Source: Patescibacteria group bacterium
GTDB lineage: Bacteria; Patescibacteriota; Patescibacteriia; JAXHNJ01
Length of the DNA: 64,000 nucleotides
Direction: 5' to 3'
NCBI GenBank assembly: GCA_034520665.1
Contig: JAXHNJ010000001.1
Coordinates: 2,579-66,578, forward strand
Below, in pieces: positions 2,534 through 22,054 of this stretch (position 1 is the stretch's first letter; every line of letters begins with the position of its first letter). The notes beneath the pieces are model-generated. The model was given only the letters and a program-made list of their open reading frames with translations, did not search any database and was not told where the DNA came from. Made by a program: the position numbers and the translations under genes.

Positions 2534-2559
2534 ATTAATTATAAGATATCTTTACTTTT

Positions 2560-2631: not shown

Positions 2632-2682
2632 TGGGTAAGGATAATTTTTTATTTTTAAAATTAATTATGCTATCATATAAAC

Positions 2683-3504
2683 ATGGATAATTTTTATAAA
2701 GAGCCAAAAATATTTTCTGAAAATCAACAAGGTTTTAAAACTGGTTTTATTGCCGCCATTGTTATAATTATTTCTTTATTAATAATTTTCGCTGGTTTAA
2801 CTAAAGCTGCTATTATAGATAATTTTCTTAATATACCTTTATTAGAACCAAATTCATCTAGTATCGATACCAGAAAATCTGACTCTTTAAATACTAATAC
2901 AAGGGGTTATCCAGTTATAACTTCTTATAGTATTGAAGATATTGGCTCTCCTGTAGAAAAACCAGTAATTTATCTTTACCCAGAAAAAGAAACTCAAATA
3001 GAAATAAATATAGATTTCCCCGGAAAAATATTCGCATCAAATCCCGAATATCAAAATGGCTGGCATGTGATAGCAAAACCTAGTGGGGAAATATTAAATC
3101 TAATAAATAATAAAAAATACAACTATCTTTTCTGGGAAGGACAATACCAGAACAAGATCGCCTACGATCTTTCACAAGGCTTTATTGTAAAAGGAAAAAA
3201 TACAAAATTATTCTTCCAAAAAAGTTTAAAAGATATGGGCCTTATTGACCAAGAAATAAAAGAATTTATCGAATATTGGCTACCACGTATGCAAAACAAT
3301 AAATTTAACCTTATTCATTTTGCTACGGCAGAAGAATATCATAATCGAGTTAAATTAAATATTTTACCAAAACCGGATTCAGTACAAAGAATTATTATGG
3401 TTTACAAAGCCTTAGAAGACCCAATAAAAATTACACCTCAATTAATAAAAAACTTCGAAAGAATAGGATTTACTGTAATCGAATGGGGTGGCATCGAATT
3501 ATAA
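2683..3504 (+). CDS. Hypothetical N-terminally membrane-anchored protein
   Basis: ORF with an N-terminal TM helix. No recognisable catalytic motif. Mirrored at 21084..21905(-). Confidence 0.45.
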   Translation: MDNFYKEPKIFSENQQGFKTGFIAAIVIIISLLIIFAGLTKAAIIDNFLNIPLLEPNSSSIDTRKSDSLNTNTRGYPVITSYSIEDIGSPVEKPVIYLYPEKETQIEINIDFPGKIFASNPEYQNGWHVIAKPSGEILNLINNKKYNYLFWEGQYQNKIAYDLSQGFIVKGKNTKLFFQKSLKDMGLIDQEIKEFIEYWLPRMQNNKFNLIHFATAEEYHNRVKLNILPKPDSVQRIIMVYKALEDPIKITPQLIKNFERIGFTVIEWGGIEL

Positions 3505-3524
3505 AGTAACTCTTAAAAATACTG

Positions 3525-5630: not shown

Positions 5631-5639
5631 GCCAAGCTC

Positions 5640-5668
5640 TTGACAAATATTAAAATTTTAGATAGTAT
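5640..5668 (+). promoter_or_regulatory. Sigma70-like promoter (TTGACA-N17-TAGTAT) immediately downstream of recG
   Basis: Perfect -35 hexamer and 17-nt spacer read directly from the sequence. It precedes the structured leader of the 91-aa ORF. Confidence 0.4.
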
Positions 5669-5680
5669 TTATTATTATAG

Positions 5681-5810
5681 GCACTTTAAGTACACACGAG
5701 GGAGCGCTTCCGCTCATAAATAACTAAAGTCTTAAACAGGTAAAGATTGATCCTCTCGCCTGTTTAAAAGACTATTTATAAAAAAAGTGCTCCCTCTTTA
5801 ATTTTTTCAA
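5681..5810 (+). promoter_or_regulatory. Structured 5' leader (nested hairpins, terminator-like long-range stem + T-run); candidate riboswitch/attenuator
   Basis: GAGCG-CTTC-CGCTC hairpin. A 13-bp interrupted stem agtcttaaacagg/cctgtttaaaagact. A long-range stem gagggagc...gctccctc followed by tttaatttttt. A 7-codon uORF with AGGAGG lies downstream. Confidence 0.35.
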
Positions 5811-5923
5811 TTAATTAATTATTTCTTGGTCTAGTTGACTTAAAAACAAAAAAAGGAGGTGAATTAATTGAAATATAAAACCATAAATTAGCTAAGTTTG
5901 TCTGTTTAAAGAGAGGATCAAAG

Positions 5924-6199
5924 ATGTGTGTCTACACAAATAATCTCTGTTCTTTACTGGGAGTTAACAACGCCAGTCAGATTATACATCGCAACGGAGA
6001 AAAAACATTATTAGAAGAAATCCGGAAATTTTCAAAAAAGGAAGGATTCAAAAAACATCTTGAAAGAAACAGCAGTGGCTTAATCAACTGGGCCCGGCAA
6101 TGGGCTGAGCATGAAAATCACTCCAAGTTAAGAAATGAGGTTATTAAAATAATTGGGGATGTTAATCCCGAAATTAAAAAACATCTACAGACAAACTAG
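5924..6199 (+). CDS. Hypothetical 91-aa protein
   Basis: Good RBS (gagagga 7 nt upstream of the ATG) and a strong intrinsic terminator immediately downstream. Identical copy at 18389..18664(-). Confidence 0.5.
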   Translation: MCVYTNNLCSLLGVNNASQIIHRNGEKTLLEEIRKFSKKEGFKKHLERNSSGLINWARQWAEHENHSKLRNEVIKIIGDVNPEIKKHLQTN

Positions 6200-6208
6200 T
6201 ACTTTCAC

Positions 6209-6242
6209 CAGGGTGGTTCAGCCGAACCACCCTTCTTTTTTT
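6209..6242 (+). terminator. Rho-independent terminator
   Basis: GGGTGGTTC-agcc-GAACCACCC stem-loop followed by TTCTTTTTTT. Confidence 0.8.
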
Positions 6243-6305
6243 ATAGATTAAAAAAAATCTTATTTAAAAAAAAGATCTTTTTATATTATTTGGCTTAATT
6301 AATTT

Positions 6306-6926
6306 TTAAAGCAATGAATCAATAATATCTTTGAGTTCCTCCTCTTCAATTAACTCAGTTATTTCATAATTATTTACAAAGAAATGAGGCGTGCCCTGAA
6401 CACCTAAACTTGTTCCTTCCTCTATATCTTTCTGAATTAAAGCTAGGGTTTCATTATTATTAACACATTGAATAAATTCATCAGTGTCCAAATCTAAGCC
6501 AGAAGCTAAGGGTACATATAAGTCATCAGTTAGTTTTTTTTGGTTTTGAAAAAGTAGATCGTGCATCTGCCAAAATTTATCCTGCTTCTGAGCGCAACGG
6601 GCCGCCTTAGCCGCGTTTAAAGATTGATCATGAATTTGATGAAGCGGAAAATCCTTCCAGACAATAGCTATCTCTCCTTCATATTCATCATTTAAATTAC
6701 GAAAAATATCGGCCAACTCTCTGCAATAAGGACACTGAAAATCCCCATATTGAATTATTACCACTTCATTACTTTTTTTCCCTATAATGGGGTTTTCTGA
6801 TTTAATTTTCGGAAAACTTGAACCAGTTTTATCATTAAAAAAAGACAAAACCGAATAAGCAAATAGAATAACTATTAATACAGCTAATACTATTAAAGCA
6901 TTTAGGCCTAGCTTTTTTTTATCCAT
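6306..6926 (-). CDS. DsbA-like thiol:disulfide oxidoreductase (membrane-anchored thioredoxin fold, CPYC active site); intact copy
   Basis: N-terminal TM helix. CxxC motif FQCPYCRE with a thioredoxin-fold context. 206 aa. The copy on the other arm is frameshifted. Confidence 0.8.
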   Translation of the reverse strand: MDKKKLGLNALIVLAVLIVILFAYSVLSFFNDKTGSSFPKIKSENPIIGKKSNEVVIIQYGDFQCPYCRELADIFRNLNDEYEGEIAIVWKDFPLHQIHDQSLNAAKAARCAQKQDKFWQMHDLLFQNQKKLTDDLYVPLASGLDLDTDEFIQCVNNNETLALIQKDIEEGTSLGVQGTPHFFVNNYEITELIEEEELKDIIDSLL

Positions 6927-6929
6927 TTA

Positions 6930-8186
6930 TTATTTCAGTCTTATTTTATAAACTCGTCCTGTATTTTTATCGGTAAAATAAATATATTCTTCATTATTGG
7001 AAAGATAAACATTCTGGGCCGTATAGTTACCAAATCCGGAAGAATTTACCGGTCTAGCTAATAATTCTTTTGAACCTGTTTCCAGATTAATTTTATAAAA
7101 ATCATCAGGTACATTATTAGCTAATTCCGGATAAATGTCACTGCCACTGGGCAGAAATTCAGGTACGGCGCAGTAAATATAATTATTATCGCCAAAAACA
7201 CATTTATCAGGCCAGGTCTGTATGTTTAAATCAACTTGACTGGCTCCTATATTTTCCATAGTGCCGTCCATTATATGAAGACTGGGGTTATAATTTGATT
7301 CTTTGTCAAAAACACTGTATAAAATAGTATTGCCTGTCGGTGACCATTTTGATTTAAAACCCCTTCCGGATACATCAACAGAGGGGAAATTTTCATTATT
7401 AGCCCCTAAAAAAATTATTTCCTGCTCTTCAGTACTGGTTGATTTGTTATAAGTAGCAATAACCTGATTATTAGGAGCCCAATTTACAGTTACTTGATTA
7501 GCATATTGCCCCAAGTCTTCCACCAATCTGGCTGAAGTGCCTTCAGGGTCAGAAACAGCTAAATAATTATCTCCTTCCTGCTCGCCCTGATACTTATAAG
7601 CTAATTTACCTGATGACGGAGAAAAAGAAAATTCATATGTTTCTTTAGGTAAACTGTACTGCTTTTTTAGGTTAAAATCGTAAGTTATTTTGGATCGGTC
7701 AGGAAAAGTAATAACAGCTTTATCACGTGAAGGAGACCAGTAAATATCTTCGGCTCCGGGATATTTATCGTCAGTTAATTTTGTTTTAGTGGTGCCATCC
7801 GGCGAAGTTTTAATAAATTCTCCAGTTAATTCATCATAATAAATCAAATCCTTTTTATTGGTATCTATTACAGCTGACTTGGTTAAGTCTTCGGTAATCT
7901 TACTAACCTCGGTAATCCCGCCGGAAGCTACCTGGGAGGGCGGTTCGGGCTGAGCTGTACCATTAATATTAGGCAAAGCTTCGTTAACATTTAAATTATC
8001 ATTAATATTGCCTGTGGGGCGATTAACCGCGTTAATATTAGGTAAAATGCCGTTGACATTATAATTATCATTATCATTAGTATCTATTATTGGCGAAAAT
8101 AAGATACGGTAAATTAAATAGCCAAAAAAAACGGCTACGGCTATAAAGCCGATAATGAGTAAAATTCTTTTTAATTTTGGGTTCAT
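6930..8186 (-). CDS. Membrane-anchored PD40/TolB-like beta-propeller repeat protein
   Basis: N-terminal TM, an N-rich linker, then repeated Y/W-rich blade-like segments (YWSPSRDKAVITF, SFSPSSGKLAY, VNWAPNNQVIATY, KWSPTGNTILYSV). Confidence 0.5.
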   Translation of the reverse strand: MNPKLKRILLIIGFIAVAVFFGYLIYRILFSPIIDTNDNDNYNVNGILPNINAVNRPTGNINDNLNVNEALPNINGTAQPEPPSQVASGGITEVSKITEDLTKSAVIDTNKKDLIYYDELTGEFIKTSPDGTTKTKLTDDKYPGAEDIYWSPSRDKAVITFPDRSKITYDFNLKKQYSLPKETYEFSFSPSSGKLAYKYQGEQEGDNYLAVSDPEGTSARLVEDLGQYANQVTVNWAPNNQVIATYNKSTSTEEQEIIFLGANNENFPSVDVSGRGFKSKWSPTGNTILYSVFDKESNYNPSLHIMDGTMENIGASQVDLNIQTWPDKCVFGDNNYIYCAVPEFLPSGSDIYPELANNVPDDFYKINLETGSKELLARPVNSSGFGNYTAQNVYLSNNEEYIYFTDKNTGRVYKIRLK

Positions 8187-8341
8187 ATAATCTATTTATA
8201 AATTAATTAAATTATTTATTAATAGTTAAAATACAGATAAGTTTGGAGCTAAAATTTTATAATTAATAGTAGAGTTTATTAGCTGTATTTAGATATAAAA
8301 AAATATTTCTCTAATAATTTGACGATATAATCAAGTAAATT

Positions 8342-9616
8342 TTAATGAAGATAAGTTTGAGCACAACAAATATGATCAGCTGGACAAAAACATTCATTAT
8401 TATCAATACAAGCAAGATCCTCGCCGCCACCTTGGTATTTCATATCATTAAATTCCGGGCTATTATAGGTGTCACAGTCTACCTCAATTTCATTTTTACT
8501 ATCACATTTCCCAGGATCCCGACAATCAATTTCTGTTTTTAAGGCTTTCATACAACAAATAGTGTCAGCTTCTACGTTAGCCCGGGAATCACTGCTACAA
8601 AAAATTTTGCTAGGAGCTATGAGATATCTTGGTTCATTATTATCAGAGTCCCAACATTGGGTACCGCCACGTTCACAATCTATTCTTATATCAGTAACTT
8701 CTTCACAGACTTTTTCAGTCAACTCATCTTGTAAAAGATTAACTTCAAATATTCCATTACTACTAGTACCACGTATTTTTGCAAAACGGCAGTCCATATT
8801 CCCAAAACCCTTATTAATTCTACGGCAGCTTGATTTTATTTCTGGATTTTTAGCAATAACAGCATCCACTTCTTGGCATTTTTCATCATCAGCTTCATCG
8901 CATAAATCCTTGGGGTCAAAACAATTTAAAGGACAATCCTTTTTAGAAGTAACGTCATTGGCGCAAATTTTTGGTTCTCCGGATTTAGTTTCTACAGTCG
9001 GATCACATTCACTACCACAACAATATGATTCACCATAAGCTGCTTTATCCTGGGCACTTTTAGGAATATCATATCTTGTACCACAAGCAAAATATGGGTA
9101 ACTATCTATTGATTCTTTATCCGGGAAATCTTTGCAATAAAAAGTATCTAAAACATTTTTTGATATATTAGACAAGGGCAAAAGTTTAAAGCGGACCAAG
9201 GCTGGGTTAATAGTATTAAGTAAAACAAAAGCCCCTAAGGTTAAAACCAGACCCATTAAAGCGCCGTTTAAAGTGGCTTTGGCTTTTTCTATTTTGGTGG
9301 CATTGCCGCTGGCAGTAATCCACTGGAAACCAGCAAAGACAATCATGACAGCGGCAAAGATACCGGCCGCTCGAGCAAACCATTGGTAAAACTGTATAAT
9401 ATAATCGCCAAAGTTATTGACACAATAATCACAGGTAGAGGTATTACAATCGGGATCACATTTTTTGGTTAAGCCGGGAATTTGTAAATTTACTTTAATC
9501 TGTTTTTCACCCACTTCTGTATCACTTCCTTCTTCCTGAGCTAAAACTTGCCCTGAATAAAATAACAAAACGGAAAAAATTGATAGGATTAAGATTATTT
9601 TAGCTATTTTTTTCAT
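8342..9616 (-). CDS. Cys-rich secreted/membrane protein, paralog B. It has a signal peptide, a conserved two-TM-helix module (possibly TrbC/VirB2-like pilin; uncertain) and a divergent Cys-rich C-terminal domain with about 30 Cys.
   Basis: Signal peptide ending AQEEG. A module FYQWFARAAGIFAAVMIVFAGFQWITASGNATKIEKAKATLNGALMGLVLTLGAFVLL that is near-identical at nucleotide level to paralog A. The C-terminal ~220 aa is dominated by Cys. Confidence 0.6.
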   Translation of the reverse strand: MKKIAKIILILSIFSVLLFYSGQVLAQEEGSDTEVGEKQIKVNLQIPGLTKKCDPDCNTSTCDYCVNNFGDYIIQFYQWFARAAGIFAAVMIVFAGFQWITASGNATKIEKAKATLNGALMGLVLTLGAFVLLNTINPALVRFKLLPLSNISKNVLDTFYCKDFPDKESIDSYPYFACGTRYDIPKSAQDKAAYGESYCCGSECDPTVETKSGEPKICANDVTSKKDCPLNCFDPKDLCDEADDEKCQEVDAVIAKNPEIKSSCRRINKGFGNMDCRFAKIRGTSSNGIFEVNLLQDELTEKVCEEVTDIRIDCERGGTQCWDSDNNEPRYLIAPSKIFCSSDSRANVEADTICCMKALKTEIDCRDPGKCDSKNEIEVDCDTYNSPEFNDMKYQGGGEDLACIDNNECFCPADHICCAQTYLH

Positions 9617-9796
9617 CTTATTATTTAATTAGGAAAAATATTATTTTCATTTTTAACATATAAGTTAACATCCATACAGCAATGTCCATTAGGCACAATA
9701 CTGCAATCAGTAGCACTGGCAGATGCACTTGATCCACAAGGATTTTCTCCACATAAAGCCGATAATGAGTAAAATTCTTTTTAATTTTGGGTTCAT
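9617..9796 (-). pseudogene. Gene remnants: 42-nt copy of the first 14 codons of the 418-aa propeller gene (MNPKLKRILLIIGF) fused to a decayed Cys-rich C-terminal tail (..ENPCGSSASASATDCSIVPNGHCCMDVN..)
   Basis: 9755..9796 is identical to 8145..8186. Downstream, an alternative frame reads a Cys-rich tail resembling paralog C-termini. Confidence 0.5.
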
Positions 9797-9818
9797 ATTA
9801 ATAATATTTACTTATATT

Positions 9819-11045
9819 TTAATTTTTCCACAATAAATTAGTGCGCATCCAACAATTTGAACTACAATTTTCAGTAGTGTTGTCGTAATAGGTACCTGAC
9901 ATACTATTATAACTTTCTCCATTGTCTAAAATATCACTATCACAATCTATCTGTATAATATCTTTTTCTTCCCAAACATCTCCCATACTCGAGTAAGGTT
10001 TTTCTTCTTGGCAAAATATATTTTCTTTAGGAAATAGAGCGCAACACCATTTATCAATATCTCCTACTCTTTCATCATTTGTACAATAATCCCTTGGCTC
10101 ATCTTTATCCCAACAAGCTGTTTCTACTTCTCCAGAATATTCTCCTTTAAAACTACAATTTATTCTTTTCCAATTTCCTTCACAAGGATTTTCTACTATT
10201 TCAACATAAGCACAGGAGTCAAAGGAAAGACCGGGTCTATCCTTACTACATTTATAATCAGTTATTTTATTTTTTTCCAATATGTCGTCAATTTTATAAC
10301 ACTCATCTTTATTAGCTTCCTCACATAATTTTTGTGGGTCAAAACAATTTAAAGGACAATCTTCACCCACCATAGTTACATCATTAGCACAAATTTGTGG
10401 GTTACCCTCCTCATCAACATCACTACAGACACTACCACAACAATAAGATTCACCATAACCCACTTCATCCTGGACACTTTTAGGAATATCATAACTTGTA
10501 CCACAAGCAAAATGTGGGTAATTATCTATTGATTCTTTATCCGGGAAATCTTTGCAATAAAAAGTATCTAAAACATTTTTTGATATATTAGACAAGGGCA
10601 AAAGTTTAAAGCGGACCAAGGCCGGGTTAATAGTATTAAGTAAAACAAAAGCCCCTAAGGTTAAAACCAGACCGATTAAAGCGCCGTTTAAAGTGGCTTT
10701 GGCTTTTTCTATTTTGGTGGCATTGCCGCTGGCAGTAATCCACTGGAAACCAGCAAAGACAATCATGACAGCGGCAAAGATACCGGCCGCTCGAGCAAAC
10801 CATTGGTAAAACTGTATAATATATTCGCCAAAGTTATTGACACAGTAACTACCAGCAAATTTTCCGTTTTCATCACAGGGTTTAGTCAATTTTGGTATTT
10901 TCAAATTTACTGGTATTTCCTTTTCTCCGGTTTCATTACTACCCTCTTCTTGAGCTAAAGTATTATAAAAAGGAAAGAGTAAAAAAAGTAATACTGTTAA
11001 AACTAAAGTTAATTTAGTTAATATTTTTATATTTTTATTTATCAT
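9819..11045 (-). CDS. Cys-rich secreted/membrane protein, paralog A (408-aa model). The ORF track extends it to 11180 because of an indel that fuses the upstream gene's tail.
   Basis: Identical to 13545..14771(+) from the MINKNIK start. It has the same conserved N-terminal module as paralog B and a different Cys-rich C-terminus. Confidence 0.55.
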   Translation of the reverse strand: MINKNIKILTKLTLVLTVLLFLLFPFYNTLAQEEGSNETGEKEIPVNLKIPKLTKPCDENGKFAGSYCVNNFGEYIIQFYQWFARAAGIFAAVMIVFAGFQWITASGNATKIEKAKATLNGALIGLVLTLGAFVLLNTINPALVRFKLLPLSNISKNVLDTFYCKDFPDKESIDNYPHFACGTSYDIPKSVQDEVGYGESYCCGSVCSDVDEEGNPQICANDVTMVGEDCPLNCFDPQKLCEEANKDECYKIDDILEKNKITDYKCSKDRPGLSFDSCAYVEIVENPCEGNWKRINCSFKGEYSGEVETACWDKDEPRDYCTNDERVGDIDKWCCALFPKENIFCQEEKPYSSMGDVWEEKDIIQIDCDSDILDNGESYNSMSGTYYDNTTENCSSNCWMRTNLLWKN

Positions 11046-11601
11046 ATTATAATTTAATAAATAGGACTTAAAAATTGCCTTTAAAGCCTCAAAAGTTTCT
11101 TTATCCAAAAAATTTGTAATCTCGCTAGGATTTTCATAAATATAATGTCCTAAAATAATCAGAAAAATAATTACTGCCAAACCAAGCCAAATATACCAGG
11201 TAGCCAGAAAAAAACTGACGATAGCCCCGAGAATTGGTATTATTATTCTTTGAATGAGTATTTTTAAAAACTTTTTAGCTGCTTTTTTAACTACTTTTTT
11301 GACTTTTTCTCTTAACCTCCTCTTTGGCTATTTTTCTTACTCTTTCTAATTTTCTTCTTCTTTGTCTTTCCTCATCTTCTTCTTCCTCCTTTTTTGTATC
11401 TTCCTGATTAAAATCTAATCCATCTTTTTCAGAGGATGAATTTCTATATTCTTCTGGAGTTTCCCCATCATCCGCTTGGGTTTCAGGAATTTCACGTAAA
11501 TTTTCTTGATTAATGTTTCTTTCATTAAAACGTTTTTCTTTTAACTCTCTTTCAATTTCCCTATCTTTATTTTCACTTTTTTTTTCATCTAATTCTTTCA
11601 T
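11046..11601 (-). pseudogene. K/E-rich small membrane protein, frameshifted copy (intact 182-aa version at 12988..13536)
   Basis: The N-terminal 104 codons are in one frame. The C-terminal TM part (WLGLAVIIFLIILGHYIY..) is shifted and read as an N-terminal extension of paralog A. Indels relative to the other arm were seen directly. Confidence 0.5.
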
Positions 11602-11611
11602 AACTTATATT

Positions 11612-12199
11612 TTATAGATCACTCTTTTCACCCCAGGAAGCAGCATTAATTTTCCATGTATTATCAATTTTTTTTAACTCTAAAACTAATTTCTGATAAT
11701 AATTATCCAGAGTATCTGTTAGATCTTCTTCAGTTCTTTCAGTTAATAACTCTACTCTAGCGCTTTCGTCGGAAAAATTAGTTATTTTATTAGAAATTAC
11801 TTTACTCACCATAGCTTTATAATCATCGTCTTCAGATCTAATTTTCTCTTGTTCTTCAATATAGCTATCTATATCTTTTTGGTAGCTAGAAGTCATCCAT
11901 GATTTAAGGTTTTCTAAATTTTCAAAATCATTTTTGTTTGAATAACTGCCGAAACGTTCAGCAAAAGTATGGGCCATTCCTATTATTTCATTTTTTTCTT
12001 TACTTTTATCAATAGCCGAATTAGTATTATTATTCGCATTTGTATTAACCGAAAGATTTAGATTTTGATTCTGATTTAAATTTAAAGCAAAATTAGTATT
12101 TGCTTGATTAAGATTGTCGTCATTCACATTGCCATTACCCTCATACCAATAAAAAAATACAAAGGCCAGACCTCCTAAAATAATTATAACGGCTACCAT
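11612..12199 (-). CDS. Hypothetical membrane-anchored protein with N-rich linker (195 aa)
   Basis: N-terminal TM and a low-complexity N/Q-rich region. Identical divergent copy at 12390..12977. Confidence 0.5.
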   Translation of the reverse strand: MVAVIIILGGLAFVFFYWYEGNGNVNDDNLNQANTNFALNLNQNQNLNLSVNTNANNNTNSAIDKSKEKNEIIGMAHTFAERFGSYSNKNDFENLENLKSWMTSSYQKDIDSYIEEQEKIRSEDDDYKAMVSKVISNKITNFSDESARVELLTERTEEDLTDTLDNYYQKLVLELKKIDNTWKINAASWGEKSDL

Positions 12200-12240
12200 A
12201 ATGATAAATAGATAATTTTTTCATATATTTATATTTTAAT

Positions 12241-12350
12241 TAACCTAAACCTTGGCTGTCTTTACTAACACTTTATACCTCTGATAGCTTTCGGCGGTAA
12301 GCTATCAGAGGTATAAAGTGTTAGTAAAGACAGCCAAGGTTTAGGTTAAT
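12241..12350. repeat. Symmetry junction of the inverted duplication: arms meet at 12291..12298 with an 8-nt asymmetric spacer (tcggcggt)
   Basis: Perfect reverse-complement symmetry on both sides (..ctgatagctt|tcggcggt|aagctatcag..). Confidence 0.9.
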
Positions 12351-12389
12351 TAAAATATAAATATATGAAAAAATTATCTATTTATCATT

Positions 12390-12977
12390 ATGGTAGCCGT
12401 TATAATTATTTTAGGAGGTCTGGCCTTTGTATTTTTTTATTGGTATGAGGGTAATGGCAATGTGAATGACGACAATCTTAATCAAGCAAATACTAATTTT
12501 GCTTTAAATTTAAATCAGAATCAAAATCTAAATCTTTCGGTTAATACAAATGCGAATAATAATACTAATTCGGCTATTGATAAAAGTAAAGAAAAAAATG
12601 AAATAATAGGAATGGCCCATACTTTTGCTGAACGTTTCGGCAGTTATTCAAACAAAAATGATTTTGAAAATTTAGAAAACCTTAAATCATGGATGACTTC
12701 TAGCTACCAAAAAGATATAGATAGCTATATTGAAGAACAAGAGAAAATTAGATCTGAAGACGATGATTATAAAGCTATGGTGAGTAAAGTAATTTCTAAT
12801 AAAATAACTAATTTTTCCGACGAAAGCGCTAGAGTAGAGTTATTAACTGAAAGAACTGAAGAAGATCTAACAGATACTCTGGATAATTATTATCAGAAAT
12901 TAGTTTTAGAGTTAAAAAAAATTGATAATACATGGAAAATTAATGCTGCTTCCTGGGGTGAAAAGAGTGATCTATAA
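12390..12977 (+). CDS. Hypothetical membrane-anchored protein with N-rich linker (195 aa), right-arm copy
   Basis: Identical protein to 11612..12199(-). Confidence 0.5.
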   Translation: MVAVIIILGGLAFVFFYWYEGNGNVNDDNLNQANTNFALNLNQNQNLNLSVNTNANNNTNSAIDKSKEKNEIIGMAHTFAERFGSYSNKNDFENLENLKSWMTSSYQKDIDSYIEEQEKIRSEDDDYKAMVSKVISNKITNFSDESARVELLTERTEEDLTDTLDNYYQKLVLELKKIDNTWKINAASWGEKSDL

Positions 12978-12987
12978 AATATAAGTT

Positions 12988-13536
12988 ATGAAAGAATTAG
13001 ACATGAAAAAAAAGAGTGAAAATAAAGATAGGGAAATTGAAAGAGAGTTAAAAGAAAAACGTTTTAATGAAAGAAACATTAATCAAGAAAATTTACGTGA
13101 AATTCCTGAAACCCAAGCGGATGATGGGGAAACTCCAGAAGAATATAGAAATTCATCCTCTGAAAAAGATGGATTAGATTTTAATCAGGAAGATACAAAA
13201 AAGGAGGAAGAAGAAGATGAGGAAAGACAAAGAAGAAGAAAATTAGAAAGAGTAAGAAAAATAGCCAAAGAGGAGGTTAAGAAAAAAGTCAAAAAAGTAG
13301 TTAAAAAAGCAGCTAAAAAGTTTTTAAAAATACTCATTCAAAGAATAATAATACCAATTCTCGGGGCTATCGTCAGTTTTTTTCTGGCTACCTGGTATAT
13401 TTGGCTTGGTTTGGCAGTAATTATTTTTCTGATTATTTTAGGACATTATATTTATGAAAATCCTAGCGAGATTACAAATTTTTTGGATAAAGAAACTTTT
13501 GAGGCTTTAAAGGCAATTTTTAAGTCCTATTTTTAA
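12988..13536 (+). CDS. K/E-rich protein with C-terminal TM helix (182 aa), intact copy
   Basis: Highly charged N-terminal region, a KK-rich segment, then a hydrophobic C-terminal helix. Confidence 0.45.
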   Translation: MKELDMKKKSENKDREIERELKEKRFNERNINQENLREIPETQADDGETPEEYRNSSSEKDGLDFNQEDTKKEEEEDEERQRRRKLERVRKIAKEEVKKKVKKVVKKAAKKFLKILIQRIIIPILGAIVSFFLATWYIWLGLAVIIFLIILGHYIYENPSEITNFLDKETFEALKAIFKSYF

Positions 13537-13544
13537 ATTATAAT

Positions 13545-14771
13545 ATGATAAATAAAAATATAAAAATATTAACTAAATTAACTTTAGTTTTAACAGTATT
13601 ACTTTTTTTACTCTTTCCTTTTTATAATACTTTAGCTCAAGAAGAGGGTAGTAATGAAACCGGAGAAAAGGAAATACCAGTAAATTTGAAAATACCAAAA
13701 TTGACTAAACCCTGTGATGAAAACGGAAAATTTGCTGGTAGTTACTGTGTCAATAACTTTGGCGAATATATTATACAGTTTTACCAATGGTTTGCTCGAG
13801 CGGCCGGTATCTTTGCCGCTGTCATGATTGTCTTTGCTGGTTTCCAGTGGATTACTGCCAGCGGCAATGCCACCAAAATAGAAAAAGCCAAAGCCACTTT
13901 AAACGGCGCTTTAATCGGTCTGGTTTTAACCTTAGGGGCTTTTGTTTTACTTAATACTATTAACCCGGCCTTGGTCCGCTTTAAACTTTTGCCCTTGTCT
14001 AATATATCAAAAAATGTTTTAGATACTTTTTATTGCAAAGATTTCCCGGATAAAGAATCAATAGATAATTACCCACATTTTGCTTGTGGTACAAGTTATG
14101 ATATTCCTAAAAGTGTCCAGGATGAAGTGGGTTATGGTGAATCTTATTGTTGTGGTAGTGTCTGTAGTGATGTTGATGAGGAGGGTAACCCACAAATTTG
14201 TGCTAATGATGTAACTATGGTGGGTGAAGATTGTCCTTTAAATTGTTTTGACCCACAAAAATTATGTGAGGAAGCTAATAAAGATGAGTGTTATAAAATT
14301 GACGACATATTGGAAAAAAATAAAATAACTGATTATAAATGTAGTAAGGATAGACCCGGTCTTTCCTTTGACTCCTGTGCTTATGTTGAAATAGTAGAAA
14401 ATCCTTGTGAAGGAAATTGGAAAAGAATAAATTGTAGTTTTAAAGGAGAATATTCTGGAGAAGTAGAAACAGCTTGTTGGGATAAAGATGAGCCAAGGGA
14501 TTATTGTACAAATGATGAAAGAGTAGGAGATATTGATAAATGGTGTTGCGCTCTATTTCCTAAAGAAAATATATTTTGCCAAGAAGAAAAACCTTACTCG
14601 AGTATGGGAGATGTTTGGGAAGAAAAAGATATTATACAGATAGATTGTGATAGTGATATTTTAGACAATGGAGAAAGTTATAATAGTATGTCAGGTACCT
14701 ATTACGACAACACTACTGAAAATTGTAGTTCAAATTGTTGGATGCGCACTAATTTATTGTGGAAAAATTAA
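13545..14771 (+). CDS. Cys-rich secreted/membrane protein, paralog A (right-arm copy)
   Basis: Signal peptide, conserved two-helix module and a Cys-rich C-terminal domain. Forms a tandem pair with 14974..16248. Confidence 0.6.
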   Translation: MINKNIKILTKLTLVLTVLLFLLFPFYNTLAQEEGSNETGEKEIPVNLKIPKLTKPCDENGKFAGSYCVNNFGEYIIQFYQWFARAAGIFAAVMIVFAGFQWITASGNATKIEKAKATLNGALIGLVLTLGAFVLLNTINPALVRFKLLPLSNISKNVLDTFYCKDFPDKESIDNYPHFACGTSYDIPKSVQDEVGYGESYCCGSVCSDVDEEGNPQICANDVTMVGEDCPLNCFDPQKLCEEANKDECYKIDDILEKNKITDYKCSKDRPGLSFDSCAYVEIVENPCEGNWKRINCSFKGEYSGEVETACWDKDEPRDYCTNDERVGDIDKWCCALFPKENIFCQEEKPYSSMGDVWEEKDIIQIDCDSDILDNGESYNSMSGTYYDNTTENCSSNCWMRTNLLWKN

Positions 14772-14793
14772 AATATAAGTAAATATTATTAAT

Positions 14794-14973
14794 ATGAACC
14801 CAAAATTAAAAAGAATTTTACTCATTATCGGCTTTATGTGGAGAAAATCCTTGTGGATCAAGTGCATCTGCCAGTGCTACTGATTGCAGTATTGTGCCTA
14901 ATGGACATTGCTGTATGGATGTTAACTTATATGTTAAAAATGAAAATAATATTTTTCCTAATTAAATAATAAG
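14794..14973 (+). pseudogene. Gene remnants (propeller-gene start fragment + decayed Cys-rich tail), right-arm copy
   Basis: Mirror of 9617..9796. Confidence 0.5.
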
Positions 14974-16248
14974 ATGAAAAAAATAGCTAAAATAATCTTA
15001 ATCCTATCAATTTTTTCCGTTTTGTTATTTTATTCAGGGCAAGTTTTAGCTCAGGAAGAAGGAAGTGATACAGAAGTGGGTGAAAAACAGATTAAAGTAA
15101 ATTTACAAATTCCCGGCTTAACCAAAAAATGTGATCCCGATTGTAATACCTCTACCTGTGATTATTGTGTCAATAACTTTGGCGATTATATTATACAGTT
15201 TTACCAATGGTTTGCTCGAGCGGCCGGTATCTTTGCCGCTGTCATGATTGTCTTTGCTGGTTTCCAGTGGATTACTGCCAGCGGCAATGCCACCAAAATA
15301 GAAAAAGCCAAAGCCACTTTAAACGGCGCTTTAATGGGTCTGGTTTTAACCTTAGGGGCTTTTGTTTTACTTAATACTATTAACCCAGCCTTGGTCCGCT
15401 TTAAACTTTTGCCCTTGTCTAATATATCAAAAAATGTTTTAGATACTTTTTATTGCAAAGATTTCCCGGATAAAGAATCAATAGATAGTTACCCATATTT
15501 TGCTTGTGGTACAAGATATGATATTCCTAAAAGTGCCCAGGATAAAGCAGCTTATGGTGAATCATATTGTTGTGGTAGTGAATGTGATCCGACTGTAGAA
15601 ACTAAATCCGGAGAACCAAAAATTTGCGCCAATGACGTTACTTCTAAAAAGGATTGTCCTTTAAATTGTTTTGACCCCAAGGATTTATGCGATGAAGCTG
15701 ATGATGAAAAATGCCAAGAAGTGGATGCTGTTATTGCTAAAAATCCAGAAATAAAATCAAGCTGCCGTAGAATTAATAAGGGTTTTGGGAATATGGACTG
15801 CCGTTTTGCAAAAATACGTGGTACTAGTAGTAATGGAATATTTGAAGTTAATCTTTTACAAGATGAGTTGACTGAAAAAGTCTGTGAAGAAGTTACTGAT
15901 ATAAGAATAGATTGTGAACGTGGCGGTACCCAATGTTGGGACTCTGATAATAATGAACCAAGATATCTCATAGCTCCTAGCAAAATTTTTTGTAGCAGTG
16001 ATTCCCGGGCTAACGTAGAAGCTGACACTATTTGTTGTATGAAAGCCTTAAAAACAGAAATTGATTGTCGGGATCCTGGGAAATGTGATAGTAAAAATGA
16101 AATTGAGGTAGACTGTGACACCTATAATAGCCCGGAATTTAATGATATGAAATACCAAGGTGGCGGCGAGGATCTTGCTTGTATTGATAATAATGAATGT
16201 TTTTGTCCAGCTGATCATATTTGTTGTGCTCAAACTTATCTTCATTAA
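14974..16248 (+). CDS. Cys-rich secreted/membrane protein, paralog B (right-arm copy)
   Basis: Identical protein to 8342..9616(-). Confidence 0.6.
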   Translation: MKKIAKIILILSIFSVLLFYSGQVLAQEEGSDTEVGEKQIKVNLQIPGLTKKCDPDCNTSTCDYCVNNFGDYIIQFYQWFARAAGIFAAVMIVFAGFQWITASGNATKIEKAKATLNGALMGLVLTLGAFVLLNTINPALVRFKLLPLSNISKNVLDTFYCKDFPDKESIDSYPYFACGTRYDIPKSAQDKAAYGESYCCGSECDPTVETKSGEPKICANDVTSKKDCPLNCFDPKDLCDEADDEKCQEVDAVIAKNPEIKSSCRRINKGFGNMDCRFAKIRGTSSNGIFEVNLLQDELTEKVCEEVTDIRIDCERGGTQCWDSDNNEPRYLIAPSKIFCSSDSRANVEADTICCMKALKTEIDCRDPGKCDSKNEIEVDCDTYNSPEFNDMKYQGGGEDLACIDNNECFCPADHICCAQTYLH

Positions 16249-16403
16249 AATTTACTTGATTATATCGTCAAATTATTAGAGAAATATTTTTTTATATCTA
16301 AATACAGCTAATAAACTCTACTATTAATTATAAAATTTTAGCTCCAAACTTATCTGTATTTTAACTATTAATAAATAATTTAATTAATTTATAAATAGAT
16401 TAT

Positions 16404-17660
16404 ATGAACCCAAAATTAAAAAGAATTTTACTCATTATCGGCTTTATAGCCGTAGCCGTTTTTTTTGGCTATTTAATTTACCGTATCTTATTTTCGCCAA
16501 TAATAGATACTAATGATAATGATAATTATAATGTCAACGGCATTTTACCTAATATTAACGCGGTTAATCGCCCCACAGGCAATATTAATGATAATTTAAA
16601 TGTTAACGAAGCTTTGCCTAATATTAATGGTACAGCTCAGCCCGAACCGCCCTCCCAGGTAGCTTCCGGCGGGATTACCGAGGTTAGTAAGATTACCGAA
16701 GACTTAACCAAGTCAGCTGTAATAGATACCAATAAAAAGGATTTGATTTATTATGATGAATTAACTGGAGAATTTATTAAAACTTCGCCGGATGGCACCA
16801 CTAAAACAAAATTAACTGACGATAAATATCCCGGAGCCGAAGATATTTACTGGTCTCCTTCACGTGATAAAGCTGTTATTACTTTTCCTGACCGATCCAA
16901 AATAACTTACGATTTTAACCTAAAAAAGCAGTACAGTTTACCTAAAGAAACATATGAATTTTCTTTTTCTCCGTCATCAGGTAAATTAGCTTATAAGTAT
17001 CAGGGCGAGCAGGAAGGAGATAATTATTTAGCTGTTTCTGACCCTGAAGGCACTTCAGCCAGATTGGTGGAAGACTTGGGGCAATATGCTAATCAAGTAA
17101 CTGTAAATTGGGCTCCTAATAATCAGGTTATTGCTACTTATAACAAATCAACCAGTACTGAAGAGCAGGAAATAATTTTTTTAGGGGCTAATAATGAAAA
17201 TTTCCCCTCTGTTGATGTATCCGGAAGGGGTTTTAAATCAAAATGGTCACCGACAGGCAATACTATTTTATACAGTGTTTTTGACAAAGAATCAAATTAT
17301 AACCCCAGTCTTCATATAATGGACGGCACTATGGAAAATATAGGAGCCAGTCAAGTTGATTTAAACATACAGACCTGGCCTGATAAATGTGTTTTTGGCG
17401 ATAATAATTATATTTACTGCGCCGTACCTGAATTTCTGCCCAGTGGCAGTGACATTTATCCGGAATTAGCTAATAATGTACCTGATGATTTTTATAAAAT
17501 TAATCTGGAAACAGGTTCAAAAGAATTATTAGCTAGACCGGTAAATTCTTCCGGATTTGGTAACTATACGGCCCAGAATGTTTATCTTTCCAATAATGAA
17601 GAATATATTTATTTTACCGATAAAAATACAGGACGAGTTTATAAAATAAGACTGAAATAA
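16404..17660 (+). CDS. Membrane-anchored PD40/TolB-like beta-propeller repeat protein (right-arm copy)
   Basis: Identical protein to 6930..8186(-). Confidence 0.5.
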   Translation: MNPKLKRILLIIGFIAVAVFFGYLIYRILFSPIIDTNDNDNYNVNGILPNINAVNRPTGNINDNLNVNEALPNINGTAQPEPPSQVASGGITEVSKITEDLTKSAVIDTNKKDLIYYDELTGEFIKTSPDGTTKTKLTDDKYPGAEDIYWSPSRDKAVITFPDRSKITYDFNLKKQYSLPKETYEFSFSPSSGKLAYKYQGEQEGDNYLAVSDPEGTSARLVEDLGQYANQVTVNWAPNNQVIATYNKSTSTEEQEIIFLGANNENFPSVDVSGRGFKSKWSPTGNTILYSVFDKESNYNPSLHIMDGTMENIGASQVDLNIQTWPDKCVFGDNNYIYCAVPEFLPSGSDIYPELANNVPDDFYKINLETGSKELLARPVNSSGFGNYTAQNVYLSNNEEYIYFTDKNTGRVYKIRLK

Positions 17661-17663
17661 TAA

Positions 17664-18282
17664 ATGGATAAAAAAAAGCTAGGCCTAAATGCTTTAATAG
17701 TATTAGCTGTATTAATAGTTATTCTATTTGCTTATTCGGTTTTGTCTTTTTTAATGATAAAACTGGTTCAAGTTTTCCGAAAATTAAATCAGAAAACCCC
17801 ATTATAGGGAAAAAAGTAATGAAGTGGTAATAATTCAATATGGGGATTTTCAGTGTCCTTATTGCAGAGAGTTGGCCGATATTTTTCGTAATTTAAATGA
17901 TGAATATGAAGGAGAGATAGCTATTGTCTGGAAGGATTTTCCGCTTCATCAAATTCATGATCAATCTTTAAACGCGGCTAAGGCGGCCCGTTGCGCTCAG
18001 AAGCAGGATAAATTTTGGCAGATGCACGATCTACTTTTTCAAAACCAAAAAAAACTAACTGATGACTTATATGTACCCTTAGCTTCTGGCTTAGATTTGG
18101 ACACTGATGAATTTATTCAATGTGTTAATAATAATGAAACCCTAGCTTTAATTCAGAAAGATATAGAGGAAGGAACAAGTTTAGGTGTTCAGGGCACGCC
18201 TCATTTCTTTGTAAATAATTATGAAATAACTGAGTTAATTGAAGAGGAGGAACTCAAAGATATTATTGATTCATTGCTTTAA
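17664..18282 (+). pseudogene. DsbA-like thiol:disulfide oxidoreductase, frameshifted copy (homopolymer indels vs left arm)
   Basis: The ATG at 17664 reads MDKKKLGLNALIVLAVLIVILFAYSVLSF, then the frame is lost. The CPYC-containing part survives as the ORF 17824..18282. T6 vs T7 and A6 vs A7 run differences relative to the left arm. Confidence 0.6.
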
Positions 18283-18345
18283 AAATTAATTAAGCCAAAT
18301 AATATAAAAAGATCTTTTTTTTAAATAAGATTTTTTTTAATCTAT

Positions 18346-18379
18346 AAAAAAAGAAGGGTGGTTCGGCTGAACCACCCTG
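18346..18379 (-). terminator. Rho-independent terminator (mirror of 6209..6242)
   Basis: Same GC stem and T-run on the minus strand. Confidence 0.8.
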
Positions 18380-18388
18380 GTGAAAGTA

Positions 18389-18664
18389 CTAGTTTGTCTG
18401 TAGATGTTTTTTAATTTCGGGATTAACATCCCCAATTATTTTAATAACCTCATTTCTTAACTTGGAGTGATTTTCATGCTCAGCCCATTGCCGGGCCCAG
18501 TTGATTAAGCCACTGCTGTTTCTTTCAAGATGTTTTTTGAATCCTTCCTTTTTTGAAAATTTCCGGATTTCTTCTAATAATGTTTTTTCTCCGTTGCGAT
18601 GTATAATCTGACTGGCGTTGTTAACTCCCAGTAAAGAACAGAGATTATTTGTGTAGACACACAT
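18389..18664 (-). CDS. Hypothetical 91-aa protein (right-arm copy)
   Basis: Identical to 5924..6199. Confidence 0.5.
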   Translation of the reverse strand: MCVYTNNLCSLLGVNNASQIIHRNGEKTLLEEIRKFSKKEGFKKHLERNSSGLINWARQWAEHENHSKLRNEVIKIIGDVNPEIKKHLQTN

Positions 18665-18777
18665 CTTTGATCCTCTCTTTAAACAGACAAACTTAGCTAA
18701 TTTATGGTTTTATATTTCAATTAATTCACCTCCTTTTTTTGTTTTTAAGTCAACTAGACCAAGAAATAATTAATTAA

Positions 18778-18907
18778 TTGAAAAAATTAAAGAGGGAGCA
18801 CTTTTTTTATAAATAGTCTTTTAAACAGGCGAGAGGATCAATCTTTACCTGTTTAAGACTTTAGTTATTTATGAGCGGAAGCGCTCCCTCGTGTGTACTT
18901 AAAGTGC
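18778..18907 (-). promoter_or_regulatory. Structured 5' leader, mirror copy of 5681..5810
   Basis: Reverse complement of the left-arm leader. Confidence 0.35.
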
Positions 18908-18957
18908 CTATAATAATAAATACTATCTAAAATTTTAATATTTGTCAAGAGCTTGGC

Positions 18958-21063
18958 TTATTCCCAATGTGTGTCTTTATATAAATTCTCGGCCTTTTGC
19001 TTAATTTTATAATATTTTTTCAAGGCCGGATCTTTTTTAGTTAAATCTTGGGCTGCTTCACGTGCCATTTTAATAATATCTACGTCTGCCAAAGTGGCCA
19101 TTTTGAAATCGGGCAAACCAGATTGTTGGGCACCGGTTAACACACCGGGACCGCGCATTTTTAAGTCATATTCAGCTAATTTAAAACCATCTTGAGATTT
19201 TTCTAAAGCCTCCAGTCTTTTTAGATTTTTGGGTGATTCACTTTCTGTAAAAACAAAGCAAAAAGATTGTTTTTCACTGCGCCCCACTCGCCCCCGAAAC
19301 TGATGCAGTTGAGCCAAACCAAATCTTTCAGCTCCTTCAATCATCATGACCGTGGCGTCAGGAATATCTATGCCGACTTCAATAACTGAGGTGGAAACTA
19401 GGATATCTATGGCTTTATTTTTCATTTGATCCATAATTTTTTCTTTTTCTTGGGTTTTCATTTTACCGTGGAGCCTGGCCACTTTAAAATCTGGAAAAAT
19501 ATCTTTAGCTATTTTCTCATATTCCTCTTTAACAGATTTTACACCTAGTTTATCCGAAGGTTCGATTAAAGGACAGACTACAAAAACCTGGTTTCCATTT
19601 TTAATTTCTTCTTTAATAAACTTGTAAGTTTTTTTTCTTTTTTCCGGTTCAATCACTTCAGTTTTTATTTTTTTACGGCCCTGAGGCATTTGGTCAATTA
19701 TAGAAAGGTCAAGGTCAGCGTAGACAGTTAGAGCCAGCGAGCGAGGAATGGGGGTGGCGGTCATTGAGAGTAAATGTGGCGCTAAATCATGTTTTTTTGA
19801 GGATTTGTCTCTTAGGGCTTTTCTTTGCTCAACTCCGAAACGGTGCTGTTCATCAACCACCACAAAAGCTAAATTGTGAAAACTAATTTTTTCCTGGATT
19901 ATAGAATGAGTGCCAATAACTATATTCACGCCACCTTTTTTTATTATAGTACTGGCTTTCTTTTTTGATAATTCCTCATCGTTAATTTTTATCAGTTTAC
20001 TGGTTAAAAGCCCCAGAGAGAAGTTAAAAGTTTTTAATATATTTTTTATTTTTAAATAATGCTGCCGGGCCAGTATTTCTGTCGGAGCCATAAAAGCCAC
20101 TTGAAAGCCATTTTTAATGGCTAGAAAAGCAGCCATTAGGGCCACTACTGTTTTTCCAGAGCCTACGTCTCCTTCTAAAAGCCTGTTCATGGGGTTACCT
20201 TTTTTAAGATCTTTAATAATTTCCTGACTTGCTTTTTCCTGAGCCTTGGTTAGTTTAAAAGGCAGGTTATTTTTAAAATCATCAATATATTTATCTTTAT
20301 AATTTATAACCGGAGCACGAGTTTGTTTAATAAATCTTTTATTTTGCAGTGATTGTATCTGAATATAAAAAAGCTCGCCAAATTTAAGTCTCTTTGAAGC
20401 CTTTTCTAACTTTTCAAAAGAATCAGGAAAATGAATTTGTTTTATAGCTTCTGGCAAAGGCATTAGCTGGTATTTTTTGGTAATTCTTTCAGGCAGGGTT
20501 TCTTTAATTTTTTTACGCAAAGTTAGTGCAGTTTTTATAAAAAATCTTATTTGTCTTTGAGAAAGTCCGCTAGTTAAGGGATAAACCGGTACTATACGGC
20601 CGGTGTGGGTTTGTTCTTTTTTTACTTTTTCAAAAGAAGGAGCTAAGAATTCCAAAGTTAATTCCTGCATTTTAACCTTACCCGAAAGAATAATTTCATC
20701 TCCGGGATTAAGTATTTTCTTTAGATAAGGCTGATTAAACCAAATTATTTTAATAGAAGCAGTCTTATCTTTAACCATAGCTTCAGTAATAGTCAGACGA
20801 CGCTTTTTCCAGCTGCGCCGGCTTTTTATAAGTTGTAAGGTACCTCTGATAGTATAAACTTCTTCCGGCTTAATGTCTTTGATAGGGGTTATTTCGGAAA
20901 AATCCTGGTATCTATTAGGAAAATAAAAAAGAAGGTCTTGTACTTTATTTAAGCCAAGACTTTTTAGCCGTCGGGCTGTGGTTGGTCCGACAGTAGGAAT
21001 TTCTGTAAAATCAGAATTAGCTTTGATCATAGATCTATTCAATAAAAATACTAAAATTATCAA
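18958..21063 (-). CDS. recG: ATP-dependent DNA helicase RecG (right-arm copy)
   Basis: Identical to 3525..5630. Confidence 0.9.
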   Translation of the reverse strand: MIILVFLLNRSMIKANSDFTEIPTVGPTTARRLKSLGLNKVQDLLFYFPNRYQDFSEITPIKDIKPEEVYTIRGTLQLIKSRRSWKKRRLTITEAMVKDKTASIKIIWFNQPYLKKILNPGDEIILSGKVKMQELTLEFLAPSFEKVKKEQTHTGRIVPVYPLTSGLSQRQIRFFIKTALTLRKKIKETLPERITKKYQLMPLPEAIKQIHFPDSFEKLEKASKRLKFGELFYIQIQSLQNKRFIKQTRAPVINYKDKYIDDFKNNLPFKLTKAQEKASQEIIKDLKKGNPMNRLLEGDVGSGKTVVALMAAFLAIKNGFQVAFMAPTEILARQHYLKIKNILKTFNFSLGLLTSKLIKINDEELSKKKASTIIKKGGVNIVIGTHSIIQEKISFHNLAFVVVDEQHRFGVEQRKALRDKSSKKHDLAPHLLSMTATPIPRSLALTVYADLDLSIIDQMPQGRKKIKTEVIEPEKRKKTYKFIKEEIKNGNQVFVVCPLIEPSDKLGVKSVKEEYEKIAKDIFPDFKVARLHGKMKTQEKEKIMDQMKNKAIDILVSTSVIEVGIDIPDATVMMIEGAERFGLAQLHQFRGRVGRSEKQSFCFVFTESESPKNLKRLEALEKSQDGFKLAEYDLKMRGPGVLTGAQQSGLPDFKMATLADVDIIKMAREAAQDLTKKDPALKKYYKIKQKAENLYKDTHWE

Positions 21064-21083
21064 CAGTATTTTTAAGAGTTACT

Positions 21084-21905
21084 TTATAATTCGATGCCAC
21101 CCCATTCGATTACAGTAAATCCTATTCTTTCGAAGTTTTTTATTAATTGAGGTGTAATTTTTATTGGGTCTTCTAAGGCTTTGTAAACCATAATAATTCT
21201 TTGTACTGAATCCGGTTTTGGTAAAATATTTAATTTAACTCGATTATGATATTCTTCTGCCGTAGCAAAATGAATAAGGTTAAATTTATTGTTTTGCATA
21301 CGTGGTAGCCAATATTCGATAAATTCTTTTATTTCTTGGTCAATAAGGCCCATATCTTTTAAACTTTTTTGGAAGAATAATTTTGTATTTTTTCCTTTTA
21401 CAATAAAGCCTTGTGAAAGATCGTAGGCGATCTTGTTCTGGTATTGTCCTTCCCAGAAAAGATAGTTGTATTTTTTATTATTTATTAGATTTAATATTTC
21501 CCCACTAGGTTTTGCTATCACATGCCAGCCATTTTGATATTCGGGATTTGATGCGAATATTTTTCCGGGGAAATCTATATTTATTTCTATTTGAGTTTCT
21601 TTTTCTGGGTAAAGATAAATTACTGGTTTTTCTACAGGAGAGCCAATATCTTCAATACTATAAGAAGTTATAACTGGATAACCCCTTGTATTAGTATTTA
21701 AAGAGTCAGATTTTCTGGTATCGATACTAGATGAATTTGGTTCTAATAAAGGTATATTAAGAAAATTATCTATAATAGCAGCTTTAGTTAAACCAGCGAA
21801 AATTATTAATAAAGAAATAATTATAACAATGGCGGCAATAAAACCAGTTTTAAAACCTTGTTGATTTTCAGAAAATATTTTTGGCTCTTTATAAAAATTA
21901 TCCAT
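21084..21905 (-). CDS. Hypothetical membrane-anchored protein (right-arm copy)
   Basis: Identical to 2683..3504. Confidence 0.45.
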   Translation of the reverse strand: MDNFYKEPKIFSENQQGFKTGFIAAIVIIISLLIIFAGLTKAAIIDNFLNIPLLEPNSSSIDTRKSDSLNTNTRGYPVITSYSIEDIGSPVEKPVIYLYPEKETQIEINIDFPGKIFASNPEYQNGWHVIAKPSGEILNLINNKKYNYLFWEGQYQNKIAYDLSQGFIVKGKNTKLFFQKSLKDMGLIDQEIKEFIEYWLPRMQNNKFNLIHFATAEEYHNRVKLNILPKPDSVQRIIMVYKALEDPIKITPQLIKNFERIGFTVIEWGGIEL

Positions 21906-21956
21906 GTTTATATGATAGCATAATTAATTTTAAAAATAAAAAATTATCCTTACCCA

Positions 21957-22028: not shown

Positions 22029-22054
22029 AAAAGTAAAGATATCTTATAATTAAT

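Follow-up and report, generated by a model that had tools for sequence, protein, structure and literature searches.

A fold-back at the end of a Patescibacteria contig, probably a technical chimera, turns within a VirB4-like gene

Lasken and Stockwell reportedly described the inverted chimeras of multiple displacement amplification (MDA) in 2007, and MDA chimeras often join offset points rather than turning on the spot. Fold-back reads have been found to make up 0.55–0.6% of ONT genomic reads (PMC12870357); in fewer than half of them is there any sequence between the arms, and library preparation is their probable origin (PMC12870357). Such reads reportedly cause tangles in assembly graphs (Heinz, Meyerson and Li, BMC Genomics 2026, PMC12870357). 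Whole-genome amplification is a second documented source of palindromic chimeras (10.1101/173872).

The locus described here lies in chromosomal DNA of a member of the Patescibacteria (CPR), within a stretch of 64,000 nt that was analysed as a whole and is referred to below as the window. The window has a GC content of 33% and encodes, among other proteins, RecG, a ClpC-type ATPase, HtpX, LigA, GatA, Ndk and a type IV pilus cluster. Within it the sequence turns back on itself, and to the right of the axis of this turn lie genes for a small membrane protein, a 182-aa protein, two T4SS pilins (PF18895), a 418-aa protein and DsbA. Taken together, the evidence presented below indicates that the turn is very probably a technical chimera, produced by fold-back and incorporated into the ends of contigs, and not a biological palindrome.

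Geometry and extent of the palindrome

The hairpin turn is present in the deposited sequence, where positions 12281–12308 read ...CTGATAGCTT, TCGGCGGT, AAGCTATCAG... without a break, within a wider context (12241–12350) of ...CCTCTGATAGCTT TCGGCGGT AAGCTATCAGAGG... The eight nucleotides TCGGCGGT (12291–12298) form an asymmetric centre, and the symmetry is otherwise unbroken. A whole-window repeat search combined with a gapped alignment identified positions 1–12290 (the left arm, minus strand) as the reverse complement of 12299–24587 (the right arm, plus strand), the in-window arm measuring 12,290 nt and the two arms differing by six small indels and no substitutions. The arms lie 8 nt apart on opposite strands of one locus, inside the limit of 200 bp or less that is used to recognize fold-back reads, and the central 50-mer has a folding energy of -20.4 kcal/mol (z = -11.5); the symmetry is far above chance expectation. 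A preliminary description of this DNA had recognized the spacer-less hairpin turn and its 8-nt asymmetric centre, and both are borne out here, the palindrome being far larger than was then noted.

The left arm reaches window base 1 and, as judged from pairs of GenBank accessions, continues for at least 2,245 nt beyond it, and for each left-arm protein the right arm has an accession in mirror position (MDZ7797986-996 against 997-8007). A 1273-aa protein occurs twice at full length, and only the last 508 codons of its left copy fall inside the window; since this copy is cut by the window edge, the contig and the palindrome both extend at least 2,245 nt past base 1. Locus-tag arithmetic identifies the 1273-aa gene as U5L76_00005, the first feature of a 455,760-bp contig (contig 1), and the check points fall as expected (00055 for a 104-aa gene, 00065 for the right copy of a 195-aa gene, then 00070, 00085, 00095, 00105 and 00115). 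The mirrored tRNA-Ser is unannotated, from which it follows that the contig begins 2,245–2,832 nt to the left of the window; each arm measures 14.5–15.1 kb in total. The fold-back is terminal on its contig and has no outer junction: the left arm reaches no boundary with unique flanking DNA and ends with the contig start. The 1273-aa gene itself (23011–26832, minus strand) encodes a fusion of B12-binding radical SAM and class V aminotransferase domains (Pfam), and a relative introduced below (L003) lacks this fusion gene at the corresponding position.

No tRNA lies near the junction, the nearest being at 2559 and 21956, and no match to a transposase family was obtained among the neighbouring gene products, in agreement with what had been stated earlier from the letters alone. 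The geometry likewise upholds the earlier view that the locus is a fold-back and not a transposon-mediated duplication. An invertible segment was also considered as a candidate and rejected, since inversion isomers never join the end of a segment to itself.

The native sequence across the axis

The same region can be followed in Logan SRR26473340, a separate assembly of the same strain that may share a library with the metagenome-assembled genome (MAG) to which the window belongs. One of its contigs (L002, 10,767 bp) corresponds to window 27182–16418 with no substitutions and two homopolymer indels, equals positions 1–8172 of the left arm at 100%, and passes seamlessly through 24587/24588, the mirror point of window base 1. 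A second contig (L001, 8,382 bp) holds the exact 195-aa protein encoded beside the axis and corresponds to window 12293–13796; it matches the window only from about its position 6882 (window 12293) onwards, and its first 6.9 kb are missing from the 64-kb window. L001 crosses the axis unbroken, with no branch, into a VirB4-like gene, and the fold-back junction is absent there. Its upstream genes encode a PPDK_N protein, a 592-aa protein, PrgI, a TraC-like protein and a 669-aa VirB4-like ATPase, the last of which matches P-loop_TraG at 4.9e-27 and also AAA_10 and DUF87. By its matches to L001 and L002, the right arm (12299–24587) is native genome sequence, collinear beyond 24587, and the left arm (1–12290) is taken to be the artefactual copy. 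In a collection of genome contigs, neither the junction 34-mer nor a 61-mer common to both arrangements had an exact match, and the 61-mer had none among metagenome contigs. The preliminary description had allowed for either a biological or a technical origin of the fold-back; the absence of the junction from a separate assembly of the same strain favours the technical one, absence from an independent library being what the description had itself set as grounds for refuting a biological palindrome.

The single-copy arrangement, which it had been suggested should be sought in other assemblies or related genomes, was found in L001 and in two relatives. In the first of these (L003, from JGI 3300022700), genes for the TraC-like protein, VirB4, a 204-aa protein, a 279-aa protein, a pilin, a 416-aa protein and DsbA form one collinear piece, and beyond DsbA, on the other strand, there follow RecG, a 166-aa gene, ComF and ClpC. 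The second (L004, from GCA_043812155.1) repeats this order, and the locus there is internal to a 212-kb contig. Both are single-copy and collinear across both fold-back points, that is, the one described above and a second that is described below, and in three further contigs (L005–L007) VirB4 is followed 17 nt downstream by a small gene. Comparison of these sequences identifies the single-copy order as the conserved state. The pilin genes vary in number: L003 and L004 have a single pilin at the operon position where the window has two, and L004 has an extra gene with a T4SS_pilin domain after DsbA.

The axis falls within the VirB4-like gene, in codons for ...AKEES... The stop codon of this gene lies at L001 6936 and is separated by a 15-nt spacer from the start of a 203-aa gene at 6952. 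The VirB4-like protein ends in ...AKEESIRGINISKDSQGLG in L001 and in ...SKEESVRGINLSRDSEGLG in L003, each followed by the stop, and this C-terminus (KEES[IV]RGIN[IL]S[KR]DS[QE]GLG, then stop) is kept in a relative of 89% identity. Window 12321–12347 (frame 2) still encodes SKDSQGLG and the stop codon, and by comparison of the C-termini positions 12299–12347 (plus strand) represent an error-laden 3' remnant of the VirB4-like T4SS ATPase, comprising its last ~17 codons and the stop. The 95 nt that natively precede the 195-aa ORF consist of these last ~17 VirB4 codons and the 15-nt spacer. The junction had earlier been placed in a promoter region that was thought to be duplicated head-to-head, and this claim has to be given up: by this comparison, the ‘promoter region’ is what remains of the 3' end of an operon gene, in mirror image, and it was VirB4 that was cut off, with no duplication of a promoter.

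The gene next to the axis also differs from its native form. Its true product has 203 aa (MKKLSIIIMVAV...) and is encoded at 12366–12977 (plus strand), the corresponding L001 6952–7563 being translated in frame; an inserted T at 12381, with its mirror at 12208, conceals the true start and leaves an ORF of 195 aa. The 203-aa form is deposited on a sister contig of the same MAG (contig 2; MDZ7799055/064). The right 195-aa ORF (12390–12977, plus strand) is identical to the left one (11612–12199, minus strand), an artefactual mirror copy, the two forming the accession pair MDZ7797996 and MDZ7797997; they diverge from starts 95–96 nt from the axis, much as the preliminary description had it (~95 bp). 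The N-terminus of the 203-aa protein, MKKLSIII, looks like a signal or membrane segment, and the hidden start lies at 12366–12392, with its mirror at 12197–12223.

These results bear on two readings in which the palindrome is a stable feature of the cell. In the first, the chromosome carries two functional back-to-back copies of the 195-aa gene with a duplicated promoter, a view that can draw on the presence of the palindrome in the deposited sequence and on the intact ORFs of both gene copies. It is nevertheless most improbable: the supposed promoter is the VirB4 3' remnant, the same strain carries the native junction, and no outer boundary delimits the left arm. Such a palindrome would moreover delete VirB4, the TraC-like gene and PrgI; no loss of the genes that it replaces was found in the MAG, where VirB4, TraC-like and PrgI genes lie on contig 2, adjacent to the 203-aa gene. 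In the second, a covalently closed hairpin telomere of a linear replicon would have been read through by the sequencer, and a terminal fold-back with almost no loop does resemble such read-through. This is scarcely credible, since the replicon continues past the site in L001, L003 and L004, the native site is not palindromic, the two fold-back points share no sequence, the point lies within conserved coding sequence, and no telomere resolvase was seen among the proteins of the window.

The turn, the arm differences and a second fold-back

All 28 bases of 12281–12308 are explained by the native 25-mer CTGAAGCTAAGGAGGAAAGTATCAG (L001 6872–6896) in one orientation or the other, with a blend cost of 8 (no observed base unexplained) against a minimum of 14 in 596 controls. 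Judged by this fit, TCGGCGGT probably arose when native AAGGAGGAA and its complement TTCCTCCTT were blended into a consensus, and probably matches no real molecule; the true fold-back centre is predicted to be CTGATACTTTCCTCCTTAGCTTCAG-AGG. The native axis carries a 4-nt inverted microhomology, CTGA...TCAG, inside an imperfect 8-bp stem, and the native junction (L001 6866–6902, both strands) folds at only -1 kcal/mol (z = 0.07). Microhomology of 2–4 nt, which had been proposed as a mark to look for at the turn, does therefore exist in the native sequence, but to no greater extent than expected by chance. Two candidate causes of the turn were rejected. A structure-driven turn is disfavoured by a native junction with no hairpin better than those of shuffled sequences; the SMRTbell adapter is 45 nt long, and 8 nt is too short for a remnant of it or of an ONT adapter.

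Extra bases occur at four sites in the left arm (6773 T, 6837 A, 11058 T and 11309 C) and at two in the right (13014 C; 13002-3 TG), most of the six lying in homopolymers or A/T runs, and relative to L001 and L002, which resemble short-read contigs, the two arms are wrong at different sites. Left-arm indel errors at 11058, 11309 and 11577–11587 cut the 182-aa gene down to 104 aa, and the 182-aa hypothetical protein (12988–13536) is deposited in the 104-aa form (11287–11601) as well. Right-arm indel errors at 13002–13014 (13001–13006 when set against the Logan contigs) fall at a native T10/A10 homopolymer, and two further homopolymer deletions in this arm, at 17752 (A7 to A6) and 17815 (T7 to T6), shorten DsbA from 206 to 152 aa, both forms being deposited (MDZ7797991, 206 aa, 6306–6926; MDZ7798002, 152 aa, 17824–18282). 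The errors are indels only and centre on homopolymers (T10 read as T8 or T9), and the CPR MAG has contigs as long as 456 and 698 kb; both features would suit a long-read platform. Within 90 nt of the axis, both arms depart from the native sequence at four positions, and over the following 620 nt at none. Mirrored near-axis differences of this kind, which base-calling errors made separately on each strand would not yield unaided, call for either symmetric polishing or a physically templated copy, a point that weighs against a technical origin.

A second fold-back was recognized on the 698,002-bp contig 2, the layout of which was rebuilt from accession and locus-tag order only. Here MDZ7799050-059 mirror 060-069 (U5L76_05700-05745), and the mirrored genes are those for the PPDK_N protein, the 592-aa protein, PrgI, the TraC-like protein, VirB4, the 203-aa and 182-aa proteins and the pilins, the pilin copies being frameshifted (421 aa; 158 + 214 aa) with no substitutions. 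The 418-aa protein is absent from contig 2, which places the centre of this fold-back (B) between ~16,350 and 17,660 in window coordinates. The second fold-back opposes the first, lies ~4 kb to its right and is more error-ridden. Contig 1 natively starts at the axis of the first fold-back (A, 12295) and contig 2 natively ends at B, with an overlap of ~4 kb. A segment (S) with the genes for the 203-aa protein, the 182-aa protein and the two T4SS pilins, from 12295 to approximately 16400 on the plus strand as delimited by accession pairs, is present four times in the deposited assembly, in both arms of each contig's fold-back. Most differences between the arms of contig 1 fall inside this four-fold segment, as would be expected if multi-mapping reads had weakened polishing. 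Comparison of junction A with the B region gave no common site (score 12 against a shuffle mean of 13.9), and site-specific recombination or the action of a resolvase was rejected as a candidate, A and B having no similarity.

A technical origin would account for these features in the following way. A chimeric molecule or read, in which one strand runs into its own complement, would have extended a contig end in a long-read assembler. The true order is PrgI, TraC-like, VirB4-like ATPase, 203-aa, 182-aa, pilin, pilin, 418-aa and DsbA, with RecG on the opposite strand; contig 1 would follow this native sequence leftwards to 54 nt before the VirB4 stop codon and then turn, after which ~15 kb would be re-read on the other strand until the read and the contig end. 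The sister contig would mirror the event ~4 kb to the right, so that the two contigs overlap natively by ~4 kb and were never joined. The duplicated stretches would attract multi-mapping reads and hence be poorly polished, giving rise to homopolymer indels and to a symmetrized centre that does not exist. Of all this, the data show the palindrome and its position at the contig end, arms that differ by indels alone, the native single-copy path in the strain and its relatives, the truncation of VirB4 and the second fold-back. We infer the long-read origin of the assembly, its cause in a chimeric read, and the weak polishing that multi-mapping would bring about. The source of the chimera may have been library preparation (nanopore-type fold-back reads) or whole-genome amplification, between which the sequence cannot tell.

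The facing pair of fold-backs also invites a reading as a real inverted triplication formed in vivo, L-S-rc(S)-S-R, or as fold-back inversions in part of the population, mis-resolved by the assembler. The triplication would have been made by two template switches (or by hairpin-capped break repair) at A (12295) and B (~16.4 kb), and it would explain why two opposing junctions flank the same ~4-kb pilin-gene segment, why CTGA...TCAG surrounds the native axis, and why the near-axis differences are mirrored, as they would be after error-prone synthesis followed by copying. We regard it as unlikely. L001 passes A without a branch, so that in its library the junction must be either rare or missing; the contig 1 arms continue for 10 kb past S into rc(R), an extent not expected of a triplication; the arm differences are polishing-type indels only; the microhomology is at chance level (z = 0.07); and the relatives are single-copy. 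In addition, at ~0.6% fold-back reads a facing pair less than 5 kb apart in a 1.1-Mb genome would be neither surprising nor unlikely, on our own estimate (from PMC12870357). It is quite unlikely, too, that an inverted triplication or hairpin-capped breaks around the T4SS pilin genes (12295 to ~16400) are real in a sub-population, in which case template switching at the 4-nt inverted microhomology in the VirB4 3' end would have produced junctions that were caught by the assembler.

If the fold-backs are technical chimeras, as we favour, neither a duplicated divergent promoter nor a palindrome is left that needs a biological explanation. In the public MAG with locus tags U5L76_, whose two contigs measure 455,760 and 698,002 bp, mirror-image duplication amounts to at least ~26 kb, to which contig 1 contributes an arm of ~15 kb and contig 2 one of at least 11 kb, and with it come more than 20 duplicated protein records, some of them frameshifted (DsbA of 152 versus 206 aa, the 104-aa form of the 182-aa protein, split pilins). 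Trimming the fold-backs would probably allow the two contigs to be joined through their ~4-kb native overlap. In scans for long palindromes, it should first be checked whether one arm stops at a contig end.

Genomic surroundings and comparison with known systems

Several other features of the window were observed. The two T4SS pilin genes are tandem paralogues (13545–14771, 408 aa; 14974–16248, 424 aa; PF18895) with long Cys-rich C-terminal extensions, and over a common core of 424 nt they are 96% identical. Between 18.4 and 33.6 kb the genes are all on the minus strand and those from 34.3 to 60.6 kb all on the plus strand, and the minimum of the cumulative GC skew coincides with this strand switch at 33600–34300; the site is origin-like and lies ~22 kb from the fold-back, with no dnaA seen nearby. 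Two adjacent giant Cys-rich proteins of 1192 and 1182 aa, probably secreted, are encoded at 34301–41522 (plus strand), just upstream of a complete type IV pilus cluster (41.6–55.9 kb) in which genes for a PilM-like protein, PilB, PilT, PilC, several pilins and a prepilin peptidase were recognized by eye. Low-complexity runs of Asn, Thr and Ser (NTNTNT..., NSNSN...) are long both in a 503-aa protein of the pilus cluster (42708–44219) and towards the N-terminus of the 203-aa protein (12390–12600). At 61424–62533 (minus strand), a 369-aa protein by eye resembles TruB, the tRNA pseudouridine synthase, fused with a Nudix/MutT-like domain at its C-terminus.

Among known systems, the hairpin telomeres of linear phages, plasmids and chromosomes, such as those of N15 and Borrelia, resemble the locus in having a terminal palindrome with a minimal loop; unlike them, the site described here is non-palindromic in its native form and lies inside a gene, and the genome continues past it. 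DUP-TRP/INV-DUP rearrangements and fold-back inversions, which arise by template switching, break-induced replication or breakage-fusion-bridge cycles, have the same spacer-less head-to-head junctions, with one segment delimited by two junctions and with changes that cluster near the breakpoint, as they do here; in contrast, the junction is absent from the same-strain assembly, the extent of the arms does not fit, and the differences are sequencing-type indels. The inverted chimeras of MDA, which show up as palindromic long reads (Pacasus preprint, 10.1101/173872), share with this locus an inverted join, and template switching by a strand-displacing polymerase is a proposed likeness; the short inverted microhomology available at the turn here is not above chance. 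Unlike the documented fold-back reads, the present case is known from its assembled consequence alone and comprises two events facing each other ~4 kb apart. In other respects it is these long-read fold-back artefacts (PMC12870357) that it resembles: the arms lie at the same place on opposite strands with essentially no insert at the turn, a separate assembly gives the junction no support, and the result is a tangle of the assembly at contig ends.
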